The notes under the pieces: model-generated
Told to the model about the DNA's origin: nothing
What the model saw: the letters and a program-made list of their open reading frames with translations, nothing else
Databases searched by the model: none
Shown here: positions 52,659 to 60,406 of the stretch, in pieces
Layout of the letters: every line of letters starts with the position of its first letter
Numbering within the stretch: position 1 is the first letter of the stretch
Source: Elsinoe ampelina
Lineage: Eukaryota
Length of the DNA: 64,000 nucleotides
Reading direction: 5' to 3'
Assembly (NCBI GenBank): GCA_010093995.1
Contig: ML992508.1
Coordinates: 654,506 to 718,505 of the forward strand
Made by a program: the position numbers and the translations under genes

Positions 52659-54071
52659 TTAGTAGAGGGCGAAGAAAGCAAAGAGACCGGCGAAGAGCGC
52701 GATGGTCGGCTTGTTGGCGGACGCGGCACCAGTGAAGGACGCAACTGGTGGGCGGGTGGTGGTTGGGGTGGTGGCGACTGGGCTGGTCACGACGCTGGAA
52801 GGCGATGGGGAAGGCACTGGAGCGTATGTCGCAGGAGTGGTGACCGGAGCCGAGCTTGCGGGAGGAGCATACGAAGATGGTGGGGGAGCTGGGGCAGAGC
52901 TCGATGGGGGAGGGGCGGGGTGTGTCTCAGGCTTGGAGCTTGGTGGTGGTGCCGGAGCATAGGTCGACGGAGGTGGCGCGGGGTGGGTCTCTGGCTTGCT
53001 CGATGGAGGAGGAGCTGGAGCATAGGTGGATGGTGTGGGCGCTGGGTGAGTCTCAGGCTTGCTGCTTGGGGGAGGAGCAGGGTGAGTCTCGGGCTTGGAG
53101 CTTGGCGGAGGAGCGTAGGTTGTGGGAGGAGCAGTGGGGTGGGTCTCTGGCTTGCTGGTGGGAGGGTGGACTGGGACGTCGGTGGTGATGCACTCGGTGT
53201 AGGTCGAGGTGATGTACTCAGTCTTGGTGGCGGTGCACTCGTGGCCGGGGCACTTGGTGACAGTGATGACACCAGTCTTGGTGACAGTGATGGTAGTCTT
53301 GGTCTTGCTGTAGGTGGTCGGGACCGGGTTCTTGGTCGTTGGGAGAGTGGTTGGGTAAGACGAGGCAGGAGGCAGAGTTGCGCTGGACAAAGTAGTGGAG
53401 TTGCTGTACGTGGTTGGCTTGTGCTCCTTTGTGGTCGAGGACGAGCTGGGTGGGCAGTAAGTCGTCGAAGATGAGCTCTTTGGTCCCTCAGTGGTAGAGT
53501 TGGTGGTTGGCTTGTGCTCAGGAGTCGTTGAGGAGTAAGCAGAGGGAGTGGTAGGCTTGTGCTCAGGAGTGGTTGAGTAAGTGGTGGGCTTGTGCTCGGG
53601 AGTCGTCGACGAGTAAGCAGAAGGAGTAGTGGGCTTGTGCTCAGGAGTGGTGGAGTAAGCAGAGGGAGTAGTGTACTTGGGTGGTCCCTCGCTGGAGTAG
53701 GTGGTAGGCTTGTGCTCAGCGGTGGTGGTGGAAGAAGAAGAGTACGCCGATGGAGTAGTGTACTTGGGAGGCTGGCTTTCAGTGGTGTACTTGGGAGGCT
53801 GGCTCTCAGTGGTGTACTTGGGTGGCTGCGACTCGGTGGTGTACTTTGGTGGTTGAGACTCGGTGGTGTACTTCTCAGGAGTGGTGTACTTGGGGAGCTC
53901 GCTCGTGGTAGTGTACTTGGTTGGCTCCTTTACGGGAGTAGTGGTGGGATGGTCGCCATAAGCAGGGGTGGTTGAGCCATATCCCTGAGGAGCGGGGCCA
54001 TCATAGCCGAGGCCCTGGGGAGCGGCGGCCGCAAGGCCAGCGAGGGCGATAAGAGGAACGAAGGTCTTCAT
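52659..54071 (-). CDS. Secreted Pro/Thr/Ser-rich repetitive cell-wall protein with GPI-type C-terminus (about 470 aa)
   Basis: Signal peptide MKTFVPLIALAGLAAA (ATG 54071), repeat blocks KYTTESQPP, STTPEHKPTT and PPSSKPETHPAP, a central Cys motif TVTKCPGHEC, and C-terminus FTGAASANKPTIALFAGLFAFFALY. Confidence 0.85.
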   Translation of the reverse strand: MKTFVPLIALAGLAAAAPQGLGYDGPAPQGYGSTTPAYGDHPTTTPVKEPTKYTTTSELPKYTTPEKYTTESQPPKYTTESQPPKYTTESQPPKYTTESQPPKYTTPSAYSSSSTTTAEHKPTTYSSEGPPKYTTPSAYSTTPEHKPTTPSAYSSTTPEHKPTTYSTTPEHKPTTPSAYSSTTPEHKPTTNSTTEGPKSSSSTTYCPPSSSSTTKEHKPTTYSNSTTLSSATLPPASSYPTTLPTTKNPVPTTYSKTKTTITVTKTGVITVTKCPGHECTATKTEYITSTYTECITTDVPVHPPTSKPETHPTAPPTTYAPPPSSKPETHPAPPPSSKPETHPAPTPSTYAPAPPPSSKPETHPAPPPSTYAPAPPPSSKPETHPAPPPSSSAPAPPPSSYAPPASSAPVTTPATYAPVPSPSPSSVVTSPVATTPTTTRPPVASFTGAASANKPTIALFAGLFAFFALY

Positions 54072-57000
54072 GTTGATGAATAGCGATAGACGATACAAGA
54101 AATAGAAATTATACGCAGACCGTAGCGAAAGAGTCTGGGAATGATACTGGAGCAGAGGGGAACTTGGCGAGATGATATACTTACTCGACGTAGCATGGCG
54201 GGAGGTCATATACGAGGCGGGAGGTAGCATCCATAGGATCCATCTTGATGCATGGTCTCGCATGGGCCGGCGGATTATGCTTCGGTGACGCGAGATTGGG
54301 ATGGCATGGTCGACAGAGGTGGATCGCCAATTTGCTTGGTAGAGGGTAAAGACGTGGCTGCGCGAGGAAGTGTCTATTGAAAGAGCTTGTTTCGATCCAA
54401 CGAATGGCAGTCGAGGAGAGGATCAATGATCTTCGCGCGAACAGACATGACTGGGTTGCCCTGCGGCGTCAGAAGGTGAGAGGAAAGAGGCGGAAGGAGA
54501 TCTCGTGTCGGAGAGGTTGGTCATTGCTGCAAGCTAGAGTGTAGCTTGGCCCTAAGGAAGCAAAGAACCGAGATGGCGCCATGCTTGATGGAGAGCTAGC
54601 GCGAGCATCAGGCTGGTACTCCGGCCGCATCCTTTTTTGCCCGCCTGTCAGTGGACAATGACAGCGCGAGTAATTTCGTTTGAGTGTGAGAACTAGGCAG
54701 GGTCAACTTGAGACATTCGAGAAGAGTGAGGGCCTACCATGGCTGAGTCGTGTAAACAAATGACATGTGTATGGTAGACATCTGTTCATACGAGCTGCTC
54801 AAAATAGCAGAATGCTTTTGCGCTTTCACCATGGTGATCATTATTGATGGTCGTTCGGTTGTGCCTGAACGCTTTCGCTTTTTCCTGCTTGTGGGGCCAA
54901 ACAGTCGCAGGAACAAGAAACCTTGATCGCGATAGCAACGACTTGGTGCCCGCATCTGACGTATGGTCTCGTGCCCACGAGTGACCGTCCTGGATTTTCT
55001 TCTTCATGCCTTGCTACCTGTCAATTTTTTGGAAAGCGGGAGCGCCGCTACCGACGTGTGTAGCGTAAGCCGCGGGAGTAAGACAATCATTGTGATAGTA
55101 ATTGTCTCTGACCGACACTCGCATGACGGGGGCTGGTAGTGGAGCGACCTGCACTACTATGCGCGACCCATTGTGAGTCGGTGATGATTACGAGCATCCT
55201 GCAGGAAGTTCATTTGCGTGTGCCGCGCTTGAAAGCAATAAAGTGATGCTGATGGAAAAGTTTGATTGGTCGGAGGGAGAGACATTGTCTGTCGCAGAGC
55301 CGCGTGCGAGGAACACCATGTTCCTCGTTTGTTTTTACCGGGCGTTCACGGTTGAGACGCAACGGGGAAAGACAAACGGAAGCGAACGGCTATCGTCAAC
55401 GGGTATCACGATGCCTTTTGCTTCTTGAGAAGCAGCGGGTCGACCGGGCGGCAGACGTCGGGTACCTGGTGACCAAAACATGGGTAGAAAACGTGACATG
55501 CGCCAACCGCCCTGTCTGTCTCAGACCTAGGACTCCACTGGATAGACATCAGAAAGAGACAGAAAAAGGAAAGTCGCACTCAACAGAAGACAGTGTGAGA
55601 GACGGCAGACGAGCTGCATGATGAAAAAGCAACATGACGATAAGATGCAGTTGGTCTGCGGCGCGACAGACCGAATGAGCCGTGATGTGCAAGACTATCA
55701 AAACCTTGTCCTGTCGTGCCTTGCAGAATAGTGGGGAGCATGACCACCTTGAAGACCTTCGAGGCAAGAATGCTGCACCCAGAGCTGCGATGCTGTGAGC
55801 CGGCGCGACCAAACATCTCATCCTCGTCTTATTTTGAGAAACACTGCATCATTGAACCAAACATTCAAAAGTCTTCGGATCTCGTTGTTGCAACTTTTCC
55901 AGAAGATCCTGGCGCCCGAGCAAAATCTATTTCCGAAAAGGACAGATAGTGATGGTGGGCTTGCAAGCCCTGCAGTAGCGTTCTCGTATTCGCTGCTGCA
56001 TCAATTCGGCCGAACAGCACAGCATCCCGCCATGCCAAATGCACTGACACCAGACTCAAGCATCCTGCAGTGTCCACTCCTCGCTCGCCGCCGACGCTCC
56101 TCGTCGATCATCGACTGGGGTCAGAAGTGCAGCCCAACCCCCCCGGCGGGGCAGGTGTATGCGAAAGGGCTTGCAGTGCTCGGAAGAACGATAACTTAGA
56201 CTACAAGTGCTGGAAGGACGACTCATGAGGCTGGCCATTGTCTGGTCTCGAGCAGTCGATCCGGCCACTGACTACACGGTATCTGCTGATGGTTGGTGGC
56301 CACCGCAATCAGACTTGCTTCCGCCGAGCCGACTCTTGCGCGTCTCCGCCATATCCAAGACAACAGCATCAGAGCATTCGGAGAGGACATCATGCCAAGT
56401 GCTCGACGAAAGGTAATCCTTCGAGACTGCGCAGGAATGCTGTTTCCGTCACAGTAGAGTTTACGATGGGAGCCGTCTTGACTGTGGATGCGGTGGAGAT
56501 GGAACAAACTTCTCAGCAGACCAGCGATTACCCCTCCTCTATCACGAAAAGTCCCTCCTTTTGATTTGGAAGAGGGGCATTCCCCATTCCCCAATCCTGC
56601 ATCTTGTCTGACTCAACGACAGTGTTGGTGTCTGTCGCTGAGGGGTAAAATTTACCTAAAAAAAAGAGCTCTGGATCAAGCTTTCCCCGCGCCACAGCAT
56701 TTTCGATCGTGGTTCAGCCGCCAACGTCACATCCTTCAACCACACCTCCTGCCAACTTGAGCCTCAAGCAAACACGAGCCGAGACAGGACAAAGACTGAT
56801 AATTCCAGGACCGAAGCTCGATATTGCTGACTGCCGTCATCACTTTCCATCAGAGGCCGGTAACATACAAGCTACTTATGATCCGTGTGACCGATCTTCC
56901 TATAGATCAAAAACTCCTCAGACAGCATCACATATACTCCTACCTGGTGGTAAGCCACTTGCGTGATACTATGACCGCATGATAGGTCAGAGGACAACGG

Positions 57001-57374
57001 CCAGACGAAGTTGAGTTGAGCATACCAAGCCTTTTCTTTGCTCCACTGCACACCTAAAGGACATCTGTCTTACAATAGCATACTTCGATATTGCGGGTGG
57101 CTTCCTCTCCCTCAATCCTGAGCCCGTCCCAGGGCAGAGTGATAATGATGATGAGCACATCTGTGGGGGGTGGGCCCATATCAATGGAACTGGCAAGCCA
57201 CAACAAATACGAGAACACCCTCCTGCTTCCGCGACCTGGGCCACACAGATTGTATCGTGGAATGCCACTCAAAATCACTCGCTACATCATTTCTACCATG
57301 GTCGTATACCTCGAAAAAGGAAGCAGGTGGAATCGCGACCTCTGTTAGGTGCTCAAACCACAATCTTCGCTTGA

Positions 57375-58487
57375 CTATGGACCTTTCACCTCTGCGAAAT
57401 CAGTGCCCAGCTTGTCATCTGTGTTCTTTGAGTCGCTCTTCACATTCGTCTCCAGCTCTACGAAAGTCGCAGGCTCTGGTCTCGTACGATCCACCTTGAG
57501 CTGGAAGACATCCAGTCTTTGATACCCGCCAACAACATCGTGATACTGCTTTCCCTCAACACACTGCGTAAGATCCAAATCACAAAACAGTAAGCCCTCT
57601 TCATGCTGCAAGTATTCTCTCTCCGTCTTTTCCCCCTGCTCATTCACCGTCCATGCCGGCAACACCGCCCCCGTCGGATCGAGAAACATGCTCGCACCTC
57701 TAGACGCCCCTTCCAAGGTCCTTCTCACCCCTTCTTCGTCCTCCGCCCCCTGCACGCACATCTCCACCGCATCCCTCCCCACCACTCCCGCAGCCAACAC
57801 CCCAAAACACTTTGCCTCGAAACAATGCGCCGCCGCCCTGATCCTATTGGCGGCGACATTATCATACGCTTTCGTCTGCGCCTCCTGTCCCCCCGCGAAC
57901 CTCGTCGGCCACACCCCCGGCCACGTACTGACATGCACCTGCTCCCCTTGCGCCATCAACGCATACCTCGCAAGGGGATTGGTATTCTCCCCACAAATCA
58001 ACGCCCCGACCCTCGCCTTCCCCTCCCCAACCTCTGCAACCCTCAACCCCGCCCCATCCCCCTGCGCCCACGTCAACTTCTCGAAAAACGTCGGTACCAG
58101 TTTCCGGTGGCGGACCACCACCTCCCCTGTCTCGTCGATGATGCAGTTCGAATTCCACAGCGTCCCCGTCCTCCCTTCTGCGCGTTCTGAGAAGCCGACG
58201 CTGATGGCGATGCGGTGTCTGCGTGCGGCGGCGCGGATGGAGAGGAATTCGGGCGAGGAGAGGGTCAGGGATTGCGAGTGCATGAGGTTGAAGAGGTGGT
58301 GGTTGGAGGAGGGGGAGCGGAGGGAGGACCAGATTGGGAAGGCGGGGATGAAGGATTCGGGGAAGACGAGGAGGGAGGCGGAGTGGGAGGAGGCGAGGGG
58401 GATGAGGGAGAGGAGTTTGGAGGTGGTTTGGGAGGCGGAGAGGAAGATGGGGGAGATGTGTGCTGTGGCGACGCGGAGGGGGGGCAT
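57375..58487 (-). CDS. Nitrilase (carbon-nitrogen hydrolase), intronless
   Basis: Catalytic E-K-C triad in VFPESF, HRKLVPTFFEKLTW and LICGENTNPLARY, plus C-terminal HDVVGGYQRLDVF. Confidence 0.92.
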   Translation of the reverse strand: MPPLRVATAHISPIFLSASQTTSKLLSLIPLASSHSASLLVFPESFIPAFPIWSSLRSPSSNHHLFNLMHSQSLTLSSPEFLSIRAAARRHRIAISVGFSERAEGRTGTLWNSNCIIDETGEVVVRHRKLVPTFFEKLTWAQGDGAGLRVAEVGEGKARVGALICGENTNPLARYALMAQGEQVHVSTWPGVWPTRFAGGQEAQTKAYDNVAANRIRAAAHCFEAKCFGVLAAGVVGRDAVEMCVQGAEDEEGVRRTLEGASRGASMFLDPTGAVLPAWTVNEQGEKTEREYLQHEEGLLFCDLDLTQCVEGKQYHDVVGGYQRLDVFQLKVDRTRPEPATFVELETNVKSDSKNTDDKLGTDFAEVKGP

Positions 58488-58768
58488 GGTTGGTGGGGAA
58501 GAGGTTGATGGCTGTGGAGGCGGGATAGAGGAGTGGAAATCGACAAGGGATTAGTAATGATAGTGCTCTTACGTGAATCGATTGGCTCAGTGAAGAGGTA
58601 GCGACTGCTTCCGACGCCAAGAGATGGCGGGTATGGGAGGATCTCGCTACCGCTATCTACACCGTCACTGTACCCGCCCGACATCATGATAAAGTAGGTA
58701 CTCAAAATATTCAACTTAAGAAGCATACACCACACAAATCCCATAGGCATCATCGATCACTCTCAGCA
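58488..58768. promoter_or_regulatory. Putative bidirectional promoter of the nitrilase / aldoxime dehydratase pair
   Basis: 281 bp between divergent start codons, with ATTGG (CCAAT box) at 58581 and two interleaved 8-bp inverted repeats. Confidence 0.5.
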
Positions 58769-59860
58769 ATGGCGTGTCCAGTACGAAGATACCCTCTCAA
58801 ACAGCCGCCGAACCATGAGCCGCCTATCCCTCGATACATGATGAAGTTTCCAGATGATCTCAAACAAATATGCACAGCGTATCTCGGCGCACAGAGCCAC
58901 CGAGAAGGTCAAAGTCCAGACCAAGCACGAACAGCAATCCAAAAGTGGCTAAAAGGTCTCGCATCAGATCAAGCACCCTACCACTACGAACACTTCATCG
59001 TCGAAAAAGGCCAGGACATCCCAGGATGCCACGTCTGGGTCCTCTACCGGAGCGACAAGGATACCTGCGAGAGGACCATATCTACCCTGGATCTACCAGC
59101 CCTGTACTCCACCCTCAACGACAAATCCACCGGCCTTTGGTGCGAACGCTTCACCACCCCCATGCCGCGTCTCGAGACAAACTACTCCAACGATGACTAC
59201 TTCCCCGGCCTCGCCAAGCTCGCCTCCGCAGAACCAAAACGCCACACCCTGTCAGCCTACTGGGGCGCTGCCAGAGACCGCATCCCGGAATCCGCCAACG
59301 ACCGTTTCTCCAAAGAAGACGACCAAGAAGAGCTCCGCCGTCCGCCACACCTGGGCAGCGTCAAAGGATTGGGCCAGCACATCAAAGGCTCGAATCCCTA
59401 CGATAATCTCTGCCATATCCGATCTGGGCAGTTCTGGGAGAAGTGTGAAGCGGTAGAGCTGGAGGCGTACGAGACGAAGCTGAGGTCAACCCTGCTTAAC
59501 GGCTTGGGTTACCTATGGGACAACCCCCTCGATAACGGGGTGATTGGGCTGCGGTTCTTGAGGAATGTTGAAAAGGATGGGGATGGGAAAGAGGCGGTGC
59601 CGAGGAAGGAGTCCTGTGGTGCAGGCTTCTTTAGGAATTTGGCTGATCTGGAGCATTGGGCGGAGAAGCACATGTCGCATTTGAAGATTTGGACGGGGGC
59701 GATTTCGCATGCGAAGAGGTTTGGGCCGGAGATGGGGTTGAGGTTGTTTCATGAGGTGTCGGTGTTGAAGAAGGGGGAGGCGGAGTTTGAGTATGTGAAT
59801 TGTTTGCCGGAGACCGGGGCGATCAGGTATATGAAGTTGGAGCATGTGGTGCCGTTGTAG
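58769..59860 (+). CDS. oxd: Heme-containing aldoxime dehydratase (Oxd, phenylacetaldoxime dehydratase family), intronless
   Basis: YWGAARDRIP (catalytic Arg), HIRSGQFW (Ser), WAEKHMSHLKI (proximal heme His), LRLFHEVSV (catalytic His), FEYVNC.PETG. Confidence 0.92.
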   Translation: MACPVRRYPLKQPPNHEPPIPRYMMKFPDDLKQICTAYLGAQSHREGQSPDQARTAIQKWLKGLASDQAPYHYEHFIVEKGQDIPGCHVWVLYRSDKDTCERTISTLDLPALYSTLNDKSTGLWCERFTTPMPRLETNYSNDDYFPGLAKLASAEPKRHTLSAYWGAARDRIPESANDRFSKEDDQEELRRPPHLGSVKGLGQHIKGSNPYDNLCHIRSGQFWEKCEAVELEAYETKLRSTLLNGLGYLWDNPLDNGVIGLRFLRNVEKDGDGKEAVPRKESCGAGFFRNLADLEHWAEKHMSHLKIWTGAISHAKRFGPEMGLRLFHEVSVLKKGEAEFEYVNCLPETGAIRYMKLEHVVPL

Positions 59861-59901
59861 GGCAGTGGTTGTAGTCTGGCCGTAGAGAGGTTGGACGGCC
59901 C

Positions 59902-60406
59902 TCATTGACCCTTCCTTGCTTCGATTTGAGACATCACGACTTCGACGATACGTTTGAAGCCTGCCATCTCCTCCTCCACTGTGCCTCCTTGTGCGGCGTC
60001 GACGAACGAGGCGCTACTTCCAACATGAACTGCCTTTCCGGTGCGTCTCGCCAGTACCTTCGCTAGCCGTGTAGCAAAGTCCTGTGATTCAGGCGAAGTG
60101 TACAGTGTCGTGCTGAGAGGTTGTGATGGATTGTACCGCTGCCTAATATCAGTGCCTGCGTCAGAGTTTGCCACAGGGTATACCAACGTTCGGCATGGCA
60201 TAGACGAAACTCCCCATGGCTGCCCCGGAAGTACCAGAGTCACTGCCTCCGCTAGTGACGAAGAGAATGAGCGTCGTAGCGAGGATGGTCAAGTGGAGAT
60301 GCAGACGAGTGTTGGCCGTGAATGGTTGCGGGATGGCAATCTCGATGGGTTTCGCTGCAGGAGATGTGCCATTGGTCATTGGGAGTTGCTGCGTTGTCTG
60401 AGTCAT
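59902..60406 (-). CDS. Proteasome assembly chaperone (PAC4/Poc4-like), 2 exons
   Basis: IEIAIPQPFTANTRLHLHLT...MGSFVYAMPN|RYNPSQPLSTTLY...DFATRLAKVLARRTGKAVHVG...GGTVEEEM. Confidence 0.7.

Follow-up and report, generated by a model that had tools for sequence, protein, structure and literature searches.

The window, by which we mean the whole 64,000-nucleotide stretch of DNA that was analysed, contains a nitrilase gene and an aldoxime dehydratase (Oxd) gene that are read outward from a short spacer between their start codons (Table 1). An earlier note on this DNA had described these coordinates, the divergent orientation and the spacer length, and all of them match the open reading frames (ORFs) exactly. 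The intronless structure proposed there also holds, as alignments to the counterparts from Elsinoë fawcettii run along the full length of both proteins (query coverage 100% and 99%), and contigs of the RNA-like runs X2, X3 and X6 are collinear on both genes without a joint. For Oxd, tblastn gives a single segment in 25 of 26 fungal-like loci; hence, the gene lacks introns across the fungal family and its intronlessness is nothing special at this locus. The GC content at third codon positions (GC3) is 0.74 for the nitrilase and 0.68 for Oxd, compared with 0.57–0.67 in the adjoining genes, with no sharp break. Large antisense ORFs within the nitrilase gene (57688..58554 on the plus strand and others) are by-products of the high GC3 and are not regarded as genes. 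The pair is surrounded by genes for a PAC4 proteasome chaperone, a CARME methyltransferase and a Ser/Thr/Pro-rich wall-type protein and by other housekeeping genes, and no regulator or transporter gene is found among these neighbours. Rfam and repeat scans of 54–61 kb gave nothing relevant.

Table 1. Features of the Oxd–nitrilase locus (positions in the window)
Feature	Position	Strand	Remarks
Nitrilase CDS	57375..58487	-	single exon, 370 aa; ATG-to-stop ORF
Aldoxime dehydratase (Oxd) CDS	58769..59860	+	single exon, 363 aa; ATG-to-stop ORF
Intergenic spacer, 281 bp	58488..58768		presumed shared bidirectional promoter; 3 HGATAR sites
Nitrilase transcript, smallest extent	57322..58500	- (inferred from ORF)	about 53 nt past stop, 13 nt before ATG
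Oxd transcript, smallest extent	58677..59924	+ (inferred from ORF)	about 92 nt before ATG, about 64 nt past stop

The spacer is presumed to act as a bidirectional promoter common to both genes. Its three HGATAR sites, which are of the GATA-factor type, compare with a mean of 0.69 per 281-bp segment; as 5.3% of such segments reach three sites, this enrichment is a weak hint. Contigs of X2 and X3, two runs from one study, contain a 49-nt joint at 60139–60187 in the adjoining PAC4 gene, with GT..AG on the minus strand. Since these runs carry spliced PAC4, they are most simply explained as RNA, and the Oxd and nitrilase genes are hence most simply regarded as transcribed. Contigs of X6, a run from a different study and with a different organism label, also cover both genes. 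The run contigs show neither strand, expression level nor condition, and the transcript strands in Table 1 follow from the ORFs. For the nitrilase, the transcript is made up of X2 records 1 and 2 (57322–58015 and 58048–58500), which are bridged by X3 record 8 (57800–58346). The Oxd transcript corresponds to X6 record 19, which matches over its whole extent (58677–59924) without a single difference or gap. Two contigs of X3 (records 10 and 11) begin at 58704 and one of X5 (record 12) runs to 59920; the 5' leader contains a 3-codon upstream ORF starting at 58686. Several contigs stop at similar positions (57322, 57334 and 57362 on one side, 59920 and 59924 on the other), which hints weakly, if at all, at the ends of the transcripts. 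Stretches free of contigs, namely 58501–58676 of the spacer in all four runs and the nitrilase gene in X5, carry no weight. Pieces of 33–35 nt at 58361–58402 were disregarded, as a purine-rich low-complexity stretch accounts for these matches to other contigs.

The Oxd protein matches the Pfam family Dehydratase_hem (PF13816) over profile positions 1–309 of 310 (E 8.8e-99, 331.2 bits against a cut-off of 25), and its solved relatives 7f2y, 3w08 and 3a15 are found at E values of about 1e-34. Residues R171, S219, H304 and H328 align with chain positions 178, 219, 299 and 320, respectively, of 3w08, the OxdA protein of P. chlororaphis, and all 24 fungal Oxds compared have the same four residues. 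In OxdA, we take positions 178 (Arg), 219 (Ser) and 320 (His) to be the distal catalytic residues and His299 to be the proximal ligand of the heme iron. Judged from this alignment, the distal set R171/S219/H328 and the predicted proximal heme ligand H304 are intact, in agreement with what the earlier note had claimed for the Arg/Ser/His residues and the heme His. Characterized members of the same family include OxdFG of Fusarium graminearum (363 aa), OxdSs of S. sclerotiorum, and OxdFv and OxdAsp (341 aa each), as listed in the accessible parts of PMC11568032 and PMC8955678. The window Oxd shares their Arg/Ser/His and proximal His residues and has the same length as OxdFG, but it belongs to a separate Myriangiales branch and is approximately 50% identical to the listed Fusarium and Aspergillus homologs. 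Also, while fungal Oxds are described in the available text of PMC11568032 as varying in their active-site residues (REV and REE types), the window protein retains the classical set.

The 370-aa protein matches the CN_hydrolase family (PF00795; E 7.5e-33, 114.4 bits against a Pfam cut-off of 23.2). Its best solved relatives are NitA (6zby, E 1.3e-44) and a Synechocystis-type nitrilase (3wuy, E 1.7e-43), with alignments that span residues 4–337. Within the solved superfamily, nitrilases are matched at 1e-44 to 1e-41, cyanide (di)hydratases at 1e-31 to 1e-27 and carbamoylases at about 2e-4, and by sequence the protein is classified as a true nitrilase (branch 1), closer to nitrilases than to amidases or carbamoylases. 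All 14 fungal homologs compared share E44, K129, E136 and C165 and likewise the whole motif CGENTNPLARY in which C165 sits; the Glu-Lys-Cys triad reported in the earlier note is thus borne out, and a second Glu can be added to it. The solved nitrilases 6zby and 3wuy belong to the same fold family and have the same triad with a second Glu. However, the residue following the catalytic Cys is Gly (CGEN) in the fungal clade of the window protein (14 of 14), whereas 3wuy has Trp and 6zby has Ala at this position.

The pairing of the two genes is more than chance: it is seen again in two other Elsinoaceae genomes, and a nitrilase also accompanies Oxd in 3 of the 26 fungal-like metagenome loci and 49 of the 133 bacterial-like ones. 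The closest named relatives are found in E. fawcettii (Oxd 80% and nitrilase 68% identity) and Sphaceloma murrayae (65% and 62%), the two other Elsinoaceae for which both orthologs are named. In E. fawcettii, Oxd (KAF4547541.1) and nitrilase (KAF4547542.1) have consecutive accessions on one contig of 123,334 bp, and the same applies to S. murrayae (PNS15220.1 and PNS15219.1, respectively; 340,559 bp). The adjacency is therefore not confined to the genome of the window. Since the three genomes are closely related, however, simple inheritance of gene order could account for the conserved pair. Orientation differs among the fungal pairs: the genes are divergent in the window, but in the three fungal-like loci (L002, L003 and L008) the nitrilase gene follows Oxd in tandem at a distance of 1.1–1.2 kb. 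When only fungal-like loci with sufficient flanking sequence are counted, the downstream side of Oxd carries the nitrilase in one of nine (at least 2 kb available; L008) and the upstream side in none of seven (at least 4 kb available). Among the neighbors of fungal Oxds, nitrilase alone recurs and the remainder are heterogeneous eukaryotic genes. In the 49 bacterial-like loci that have one, the nitrilase lies within the Oxd flanks retrieved, often immediately upstream, and the arrangement to which the earlier note had likened the pair is thus recovered. Linkage is by no means general among fungi: it is seen in three Elsinoaceae genomes and in the three fungal-like loci but not in seven more distant species named in both match lists (Xylogone, Colletotrichum karsti, Amphichorda, Mariannaea, Neonectria ditissima, Fusarium austroafricanum and Metarhizium album), in which Oxd and the best clade nitrilase are on different contigs. 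Likewise, accession numbers give no adjacency in F. austroafricanum, and in A. ibericus the accession of the characterized OxdAsp, as it appears in the accessible text of PMC11568032, is not numbered next to a clade nitrilase. For E. australis, an orthologous nitrilase is known, whereas the 120 Oxd matches listed include none from this species, suggesting that the nitrilase can persist alone. No fused Oxd–nitrilase proteins were found among proteins of 637–2000 aa, which is weak evidence.

Similar pairs have been described. According to the accessible part of a 2016 genome paper (PMC4738786), adjacent oxd and nitrilase genes occur in Ochroconis mirabilis, and F. graminearum is cited there, second-hand, for the same adjacency. 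As far as that part of the paper goes, no regulator gene accompanies the O. mirabilis pair, which resembles the window in being a PF13816-type Oxd gene adjoining a nitrilase gene, without a regulator, in a Pezizomycotina genome. The window pair is divergent with a common 281-bp spacer and is kept in three Elsinoaceae genomes, whereas the orientation in O. mirabilis is, in the available text, given in a figure only. Hence, the pair adds one more case to a type of system already on record, and the novelty attached to it in the earlier note was overstated. A literature search combining Elsinoe with nitrilase found no publication. The succession of Oxd and nitrilase is the described aldoxime–nitrile pathway, and bacterial oxd-nit operons are known from Bacillus sp. 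OxB-1 and Pseudomonas (both as given in the accessible sections of PMC8955678). These operons encode the same two enzyme families and follow the same pathway logic as the window pair. However, the bacterial genes are co-directional, the nitrilase gene often directly preceding oxd within one operon and a regulator often being present, whereas the window contains two divergent monocistronic eukaryotic genes; also, the best bacterial Oxds are only 34–35% identical to the window Oxd, and Oxd-linked bacterial nitrilases reach at most about 44–47% identity to the window nitrilase.

The best reading of the locus, to which we assign a probability of about 0.65, is a two-gene catabolic module of an Elsinoë-like plant-pathogenic fungus (Dothideomycetes, Myriangiales) that converts aldoximes via nitriles to acids. 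Based on the solved and characterized families, the aldoxime nitrogen would bind to a ferrous heme ligated by H304 of Oxd, and H328, S219 and R171 would help to remove water, yielding the nitrile. This nitrile would then be handed over to the nitrilase and attacked by C165 with the assistance of E44, K129 and E136, and a carboxylic acid and ammonia would be released. Outward reading from a single 281-bp spacer would permit joint control of the two genes. The substrates are likely to be arylacetaldoximes of plants, indole-3-acetaldoxime or aliphatic aldoximes that the fungus may meet in host tissue. Activity on indole-3-acetaldoxime and related oximes is described for the Oxds of F. graminearum and S. 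sclerotiorum (PMC8955678). With such substrates, the fungus would gain both detoxification and nitrogen, and phenylacetic or indole-3-acetic acid might be among the acids formed.

Alternatively, the two genes may be neighbors by descent only, an explanation that we consider unlikely but that has several observations on its side. In this case, the nitrilase would serve another pool, such as other plant nitriles, beta-cyanoalanine-type compounds or xenobiotics, the nitrile formed by Oxd would be excreted or handled elsewhere, and the spacer would not confer joint regulation. Oxd and nitrilase are apart in most fungi examined, E. australis seems to retain its nitrilase without an Oxd among the matches listed, and the window nitrilase has changed more quickly than its Oxd neighbor, as seen from the identities to E. 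fawcettii given above. Also, the fungal nitrilase clade is very large, and most of its 4946 matches to the window protein (E ≤ 0.001) cannot be Oxd-linked. On the other hand, the pairing arises repeatedly and in varied orientations in both fungi and bacteria, the nitrilase is the sole recurring neighbor of fungal Oxds, and both genes are found in the same RNA-like runs.

A second alternative concerns the origin of the linkage and is, in our estimate, rather improbable: an alphaproteobacterium-like oxd-nit cluster would have entered an early ascomycete as one piece, and the pairs of the Elsinoaceae, Ochroconis, F. graminearum and L002/L008 would be remnants of a linkage lost in most lineages. 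The fungal Oxds group in a single, long-stemmed clade (SH-aLRT 100) that joins Oxds of the Rhodobacterales, Xanthobacteraceae and Rhodospirillales type (support 96 and 99 in two trees), with 13 of 14 evenly sampled bacterial Oxds on the other side of the tree. Such an origin would also fit the lack of introns in Oxd across fungi, the rarity of the gene in bacteria (10/401 Pseudomonadota and 3/401 Actinomycetota genomes searched) and its near confinement, among fungi, to the Ascomycota, as reported in the accessible part of a review (PMC8955678). However, the root of these unrooted trees may lie on the fungal stem, and the bacterial sample was mostly recruited with fungal motifs. For the nitrilase, the evidence is divided. 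The copies linked to those same bacterial Oxds are 40–44% identical to the window nitrilase, compared with approximately 32% for other Oxd-linked nitrilases, and a tree in which the fungal nitrilases are held together with the linked bacterial ones is not rejected by the AU test (p 0.338). In the free tree, in contrast, the nearest bacterial relatives are three nitrilases that are not adjacent to Oxd (L160–L162, union support 99), and these are 49–52% identical to the window protein, whereas linked copies from the same genomes reach 42–47%. The varied fungal arrangements, divergent in the window and tandem in L002, L003 and L008, and the position of linked fungal pairs in separate sub-branches with unlinked species between them also argue against inheritance of a single cluster. 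A joint transfer of the two genes is neither supported nor rejected, while a bacterial source of the fungal Oxd clade in the distant past is plausible. A literature search on Oxd and horizontal transfer found, among the titles and abstract openings listed, nothing addressing a fungal origin of Oxd; a millipede paper that it returned (PMC12671775) concerns, in its accessible part, P450 enzymes.

Recent horizontal acquisition of a bacterial oxd-nit cassette by this genome or its genus, for which surface features only would speak (no introns, bacterial-style pairing), has next to no likelihood and is refuted, since both proteins are deeply nested in large clades of fungal sequences and branch in the order of the local species tree (Elsinoë, then Sphaceloma and, for Oxd, Myriangium), listed fungal Oxds are 46–80% identical to the window Oxd as opposed to the 34–35% of the best bacterial ones, GC3 shows no sharp break against neighboring genes, and the flanks consist of ordinary eukaryotic housekeeping genes, at least one of which is spliced. 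The transfer from bacteria raised in the earlier note thus fails at the local scale, where both proteins track the fungal species order and composition is unremarkable, and stays plausible only as an early event from which all fungal Oxds would descend.

The aldoxime-to-acid pair opens no new class of system. For biocatalysis, it provides an Oxd from an uncharacterized fungal branch in which the classical active site is retained, and with one short presumed promoter region common to both enzymes, co-regulation is easily testable. A bolder extension of the preferred reading, which we regard as a long shot, is that the divergent Elsinoaceae pair formed independently of the tandem fungal pairs, by convergent clustering under selection, and operates in planta as a module turning host defense aldoximes (indole-3-acetaldoxime and phenylacetaldoxime) into the auxins IAA and PAA. 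Hyperplastic scab symptoms are typical of Elsinoë diseases, and if this extension were true, the IAA and PAA produced in planta by the pair would feed these symptoms and the reactions would yield nitrogen. The locus thus offers a defined gene pair for asking whether fungal pathogens convert the aldoxime defenses of plants into nitrogen or auxins.

The two divergent ORFs described in the earlier note were recovered exactly, with the start codons of the nitrilase and aldoxime dehydratase (Oxd) genes 281 bp apart, and its observation of the gene pair is confirmed. The 370-aa protein is a member of the CN_hydrolase family (PF00795, E 7.5e-33), and the 363-aa protein matches positions 1–309 of 310 of the profile for heme-containing dehydratases (PF13816, E 8.8e-99). 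Solved structures that match the Oxd include phenylacetaldoxime dehydratase 7f2y and two aldoxime dehydratases, 3w08 and 3a15 (E about 1e-34), and the nitrilase matches the true nitrilases 6zby (1.3e-44) and 3wuy (1.7e-43), with cyanide dihydratases and carbamoylases scoring far worse. The catalytic residues are intact in both enzymes, as had been claimed. R171, S219, H304 and H328 of the Oxd align opposite 3w08 chain positions 178, 219, 299 and 320; they do not vary in an alignment of 24 fungal Oxds, and a check by position confirmed each. Their OxdA counterparts are the distal Arg/Ser/His trio and the proximal histidine that ligates the heme. The nitrilase residues E44, K129, E136 and C165 likewise do not vary across 14 fungal homologues, nor does the entire CGENTNPLARY motif, and hence the Gly following the catalytic Cys is a feature of the clade and not a defect.

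Features of the Oxd–nitrilase region (window numbering) and of one metagenome locus
Feature	Position	Strand	Remark
Ser/Thr/Pro-rich ORF	52659-54071	minus	
Gene-poor stretch	54423-57374		about 3 kb
Nitrilase ORF, ATG to stop	57375..58487	minus	370 aa
Upstream ORF in Oxd 5' leader	58686-58697		three codons
Oxd ORF, ATG to stop	58769..59860	plus	363 aa
PAC4 proteasome assembly chaperone gene (PF16093)	59902-60406	minus	contains the intron below
PAC4 intron	60139-60187	minus	49 nt, unspliced in genome
Tandem Oxd, nitrilase, then FMN reductase and MFS transporter	L008:2762-6086		metagenome contig

Contigs from four public runs (X2, X3, X5 and X6) were aligned to 57000-60300. Those of X2 and X3, which come from one study, skip 49 nt whose ends read GT..AG on the minus strand (CT..AC on the plus). 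Since this joint falls inside the minus-strand PAC4 gene, which is unspliced in the genome, these contigs are most simply RNA. Contigs of X2, X3 and X6 (the last from another study and under another organism label) are collinear with the nitrilase, together covering 57322-58500, and with the Oxd from 58677 or 58704 to 59924 and beyond, and no joint occurs in either gene. Because collinear contigs of RNA-like runs lack a joint, both genes are intronless, in agreement with the earlier note, and, most simply, transcribed. The two proteins each align end to end with their relatives, and the lack of introns is a trait of the whole family: Oxd gives one tblastn segment in 25 of 26 fungal-like metagenome loci. 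PAC4 converges on Oxd, the stop codons lying 42 bp apart; one contig continues from Oxd into spliced PAC4, so that near 59.9 kb the two transcripts, which converge, meet or overlap, and X5 and X6 have separate contigs there. The Oxd 5' leader within X6 record 19 also holds a short upstream ORF (ATG ATA AAG TAG).

The neighbouring genes are of housekeeping type (PAC4, carnosine N-methyltransferase, EST1, a misato-type tubulin-domain protein, DENND11, a GAT-domain protein and APC4), and no P450, transporter, regulator or secondary-metabolite core enzyme was found among them; the pair is a two-gene island. Its 281-bp spacer contains three HGATAR sites, which may be a sign of nitrogen control; the hint is marginal, because 5.3% of equal-sized windows attain that count. 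On the nitrilase side lies a long repetitive Ser/Thr/Pro-rich ORF with a signal-peptide-like start (MKTFVPLIALAGLAAAAP), a hydrophobic C-terminus and no Pfam match, whose product resembles a GPI-anchored protein of wall or adhesin type. Between this gene and the nitrilase, the sequence is unusually empty for a gene-dense window: no ORF in any frame reaches 150 aa, an Rfam search from 54000 gave no match, and a repeat search from 54400 showed nothing notable.

Among the matches listed, the nearest named relative of the window Oxd is that of Elsinoë fawcettii (80% identity), followed by those of Sphaceloma murrayae (65%), Myriangium duriaei (58%) and many other Ascomycota (about 46–53%); on this ranking the window belongs to an Elsinoë-like fungus of the Myriangiales. 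The pairing is kept beyond this genome: the Oxd and best nitrilase match of E. fawcettii (KAF4547541.1 and KAF4547542.1, on a 123,334-bp contig) and the Oxd and nitrilase of S. murrayae (PNS15220.1 and PNS15219.1, on a 340,559-bp contig) are consecutively numbered, adjacency being judged here from accession numbers and contig. The S. murrayae nitrilase, a 371-aa PF00795 protein, carries the public name 'COP9 signalosome complex subunit 4', probably a mis-annotation. The E. australis nitrilase groups with this Oxd-linked protein (support 87), and no E. australis Oxd is among the matches listed (best 120); Oxd may have been lost there with the nitrilase retained, or there may be an annotation gap. 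Outside Elsinoaceae, linkage is patchy. The two genes lie on different contigs in seven species common to both match lists, and A. ibericus OxdAsp (accession from a review table) is not numbered beside that species' nitrilase of the window clade.

A metagenome scan yielded 26 fungal-like Oxd loci with 39–50% identity; the 17 kept after a length and redundancy filter fall among named fungi in the tree, and nine of ten loci with checked neighbours carry families like aspartyl protease, Pex2, HET, Nic96, chitin synthase or MFS transporters. In three of the 26 (L002, L003 and L008), a nitrilase on the same strand as Oxd lies 1.1–1.2 kb downstream. A downstream nitrilase was present at only one of nine loci with at least 2 kb downstream, and a divergent one at none of seven with at least 4 kb upstream. 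In the trees, the L008 Oxd groups as sister to the enzyme of the yeast Lipomyces kononenkoae, nested among Aspergillus Oxds, and the L008 nitrilase as sister to the A. ibericus and A. sclerotiicarbonarius proteins; the pair could have moved between fungal lineages. At bacterial-like loci, a nitrilase lies within the fetched flanks in 49 of 133 cases, typically directly upstream of Oxd, as in the classic operon.

The earlier note had raised a possible ancient transfer from bacteria; an ancient bacterial origin of the whole fungal Oxd clade is plausible and not specific to this locus. In an unrooted tree of 83 rows (quick IQ-TREE search, SH-aLRT supports only), the fungal rows all fall into a single clade (support 100) with a long stem, within which the window Oxd groups with E. 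fawcettii, then Sphaceloma, then Myriangium (99 at every step), and the clade joins Oxds of Rhodobacterales, Xanthobacteraceae and Rhodospirillales type (96). Since fungal motifs had served to recruit the first bacterial sample, Oxds were added from genomes drawn evenly (found in 10/401 Pseudomonadota and 3/401 Actinomycetota); 13 of 14 added sequences lie beyond a branch of support 99, and the fungal clade remains with the alphaproteobacterial-type group. An old bacterial origin of Oxd is thus fitted, not proven, as the trees are unrooted. Joint transfer of both genes may have occurred but is unsupported. The nearest bacterial relatives of the fungal nitrilases (clade support 99) are three copies not beside Oxd, from genomes that also have an Oxd-linked copy, and these are 49–52% identical to the window nitrilase, against 42–47% for linked copies; a tree holding fungal and Oxd-linked nitrilases together was not rejected in an AU test (log-likelihood difference 7.77, p 0.338). 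Recent bacterial transfer of the pair is refuted; GC3 is 0.74 for the nitrilase and 0.68 for Oxd versus 0.57–0.67 for neighbours, and the composition is without sign of recent entry.

The review PMC8955678 describes the action of Oxd and then nitrilase as the aldoxime-nitrile pathway, names two characterised fungal Oxds, of S. sclerotiorum and F. graminearum, both of which act on indole-3-acetaldoxime, and credits Ascomycota, to which fungal Oxds are almost confined, with hundreds of sequences. OxdFG, OxdFv and OxdAsp are listed in PMC11568032, and a fungal Oxd–nitrilase pair, in Ochroconis mirabilis, is already in print in PMC4738786. A literature search for 'Elsinoe' together with 'nitrilase' returned no paper. 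This kind of system is thus already published for fungi, and the window pair is a further example. From family chemistry, the recurrence of the arrangement and the occurrence of both genes in RNA-like contigs, we predict, with a probability of roughly two in three, that the pair would act as a two-step aldoxime-to-acid module.
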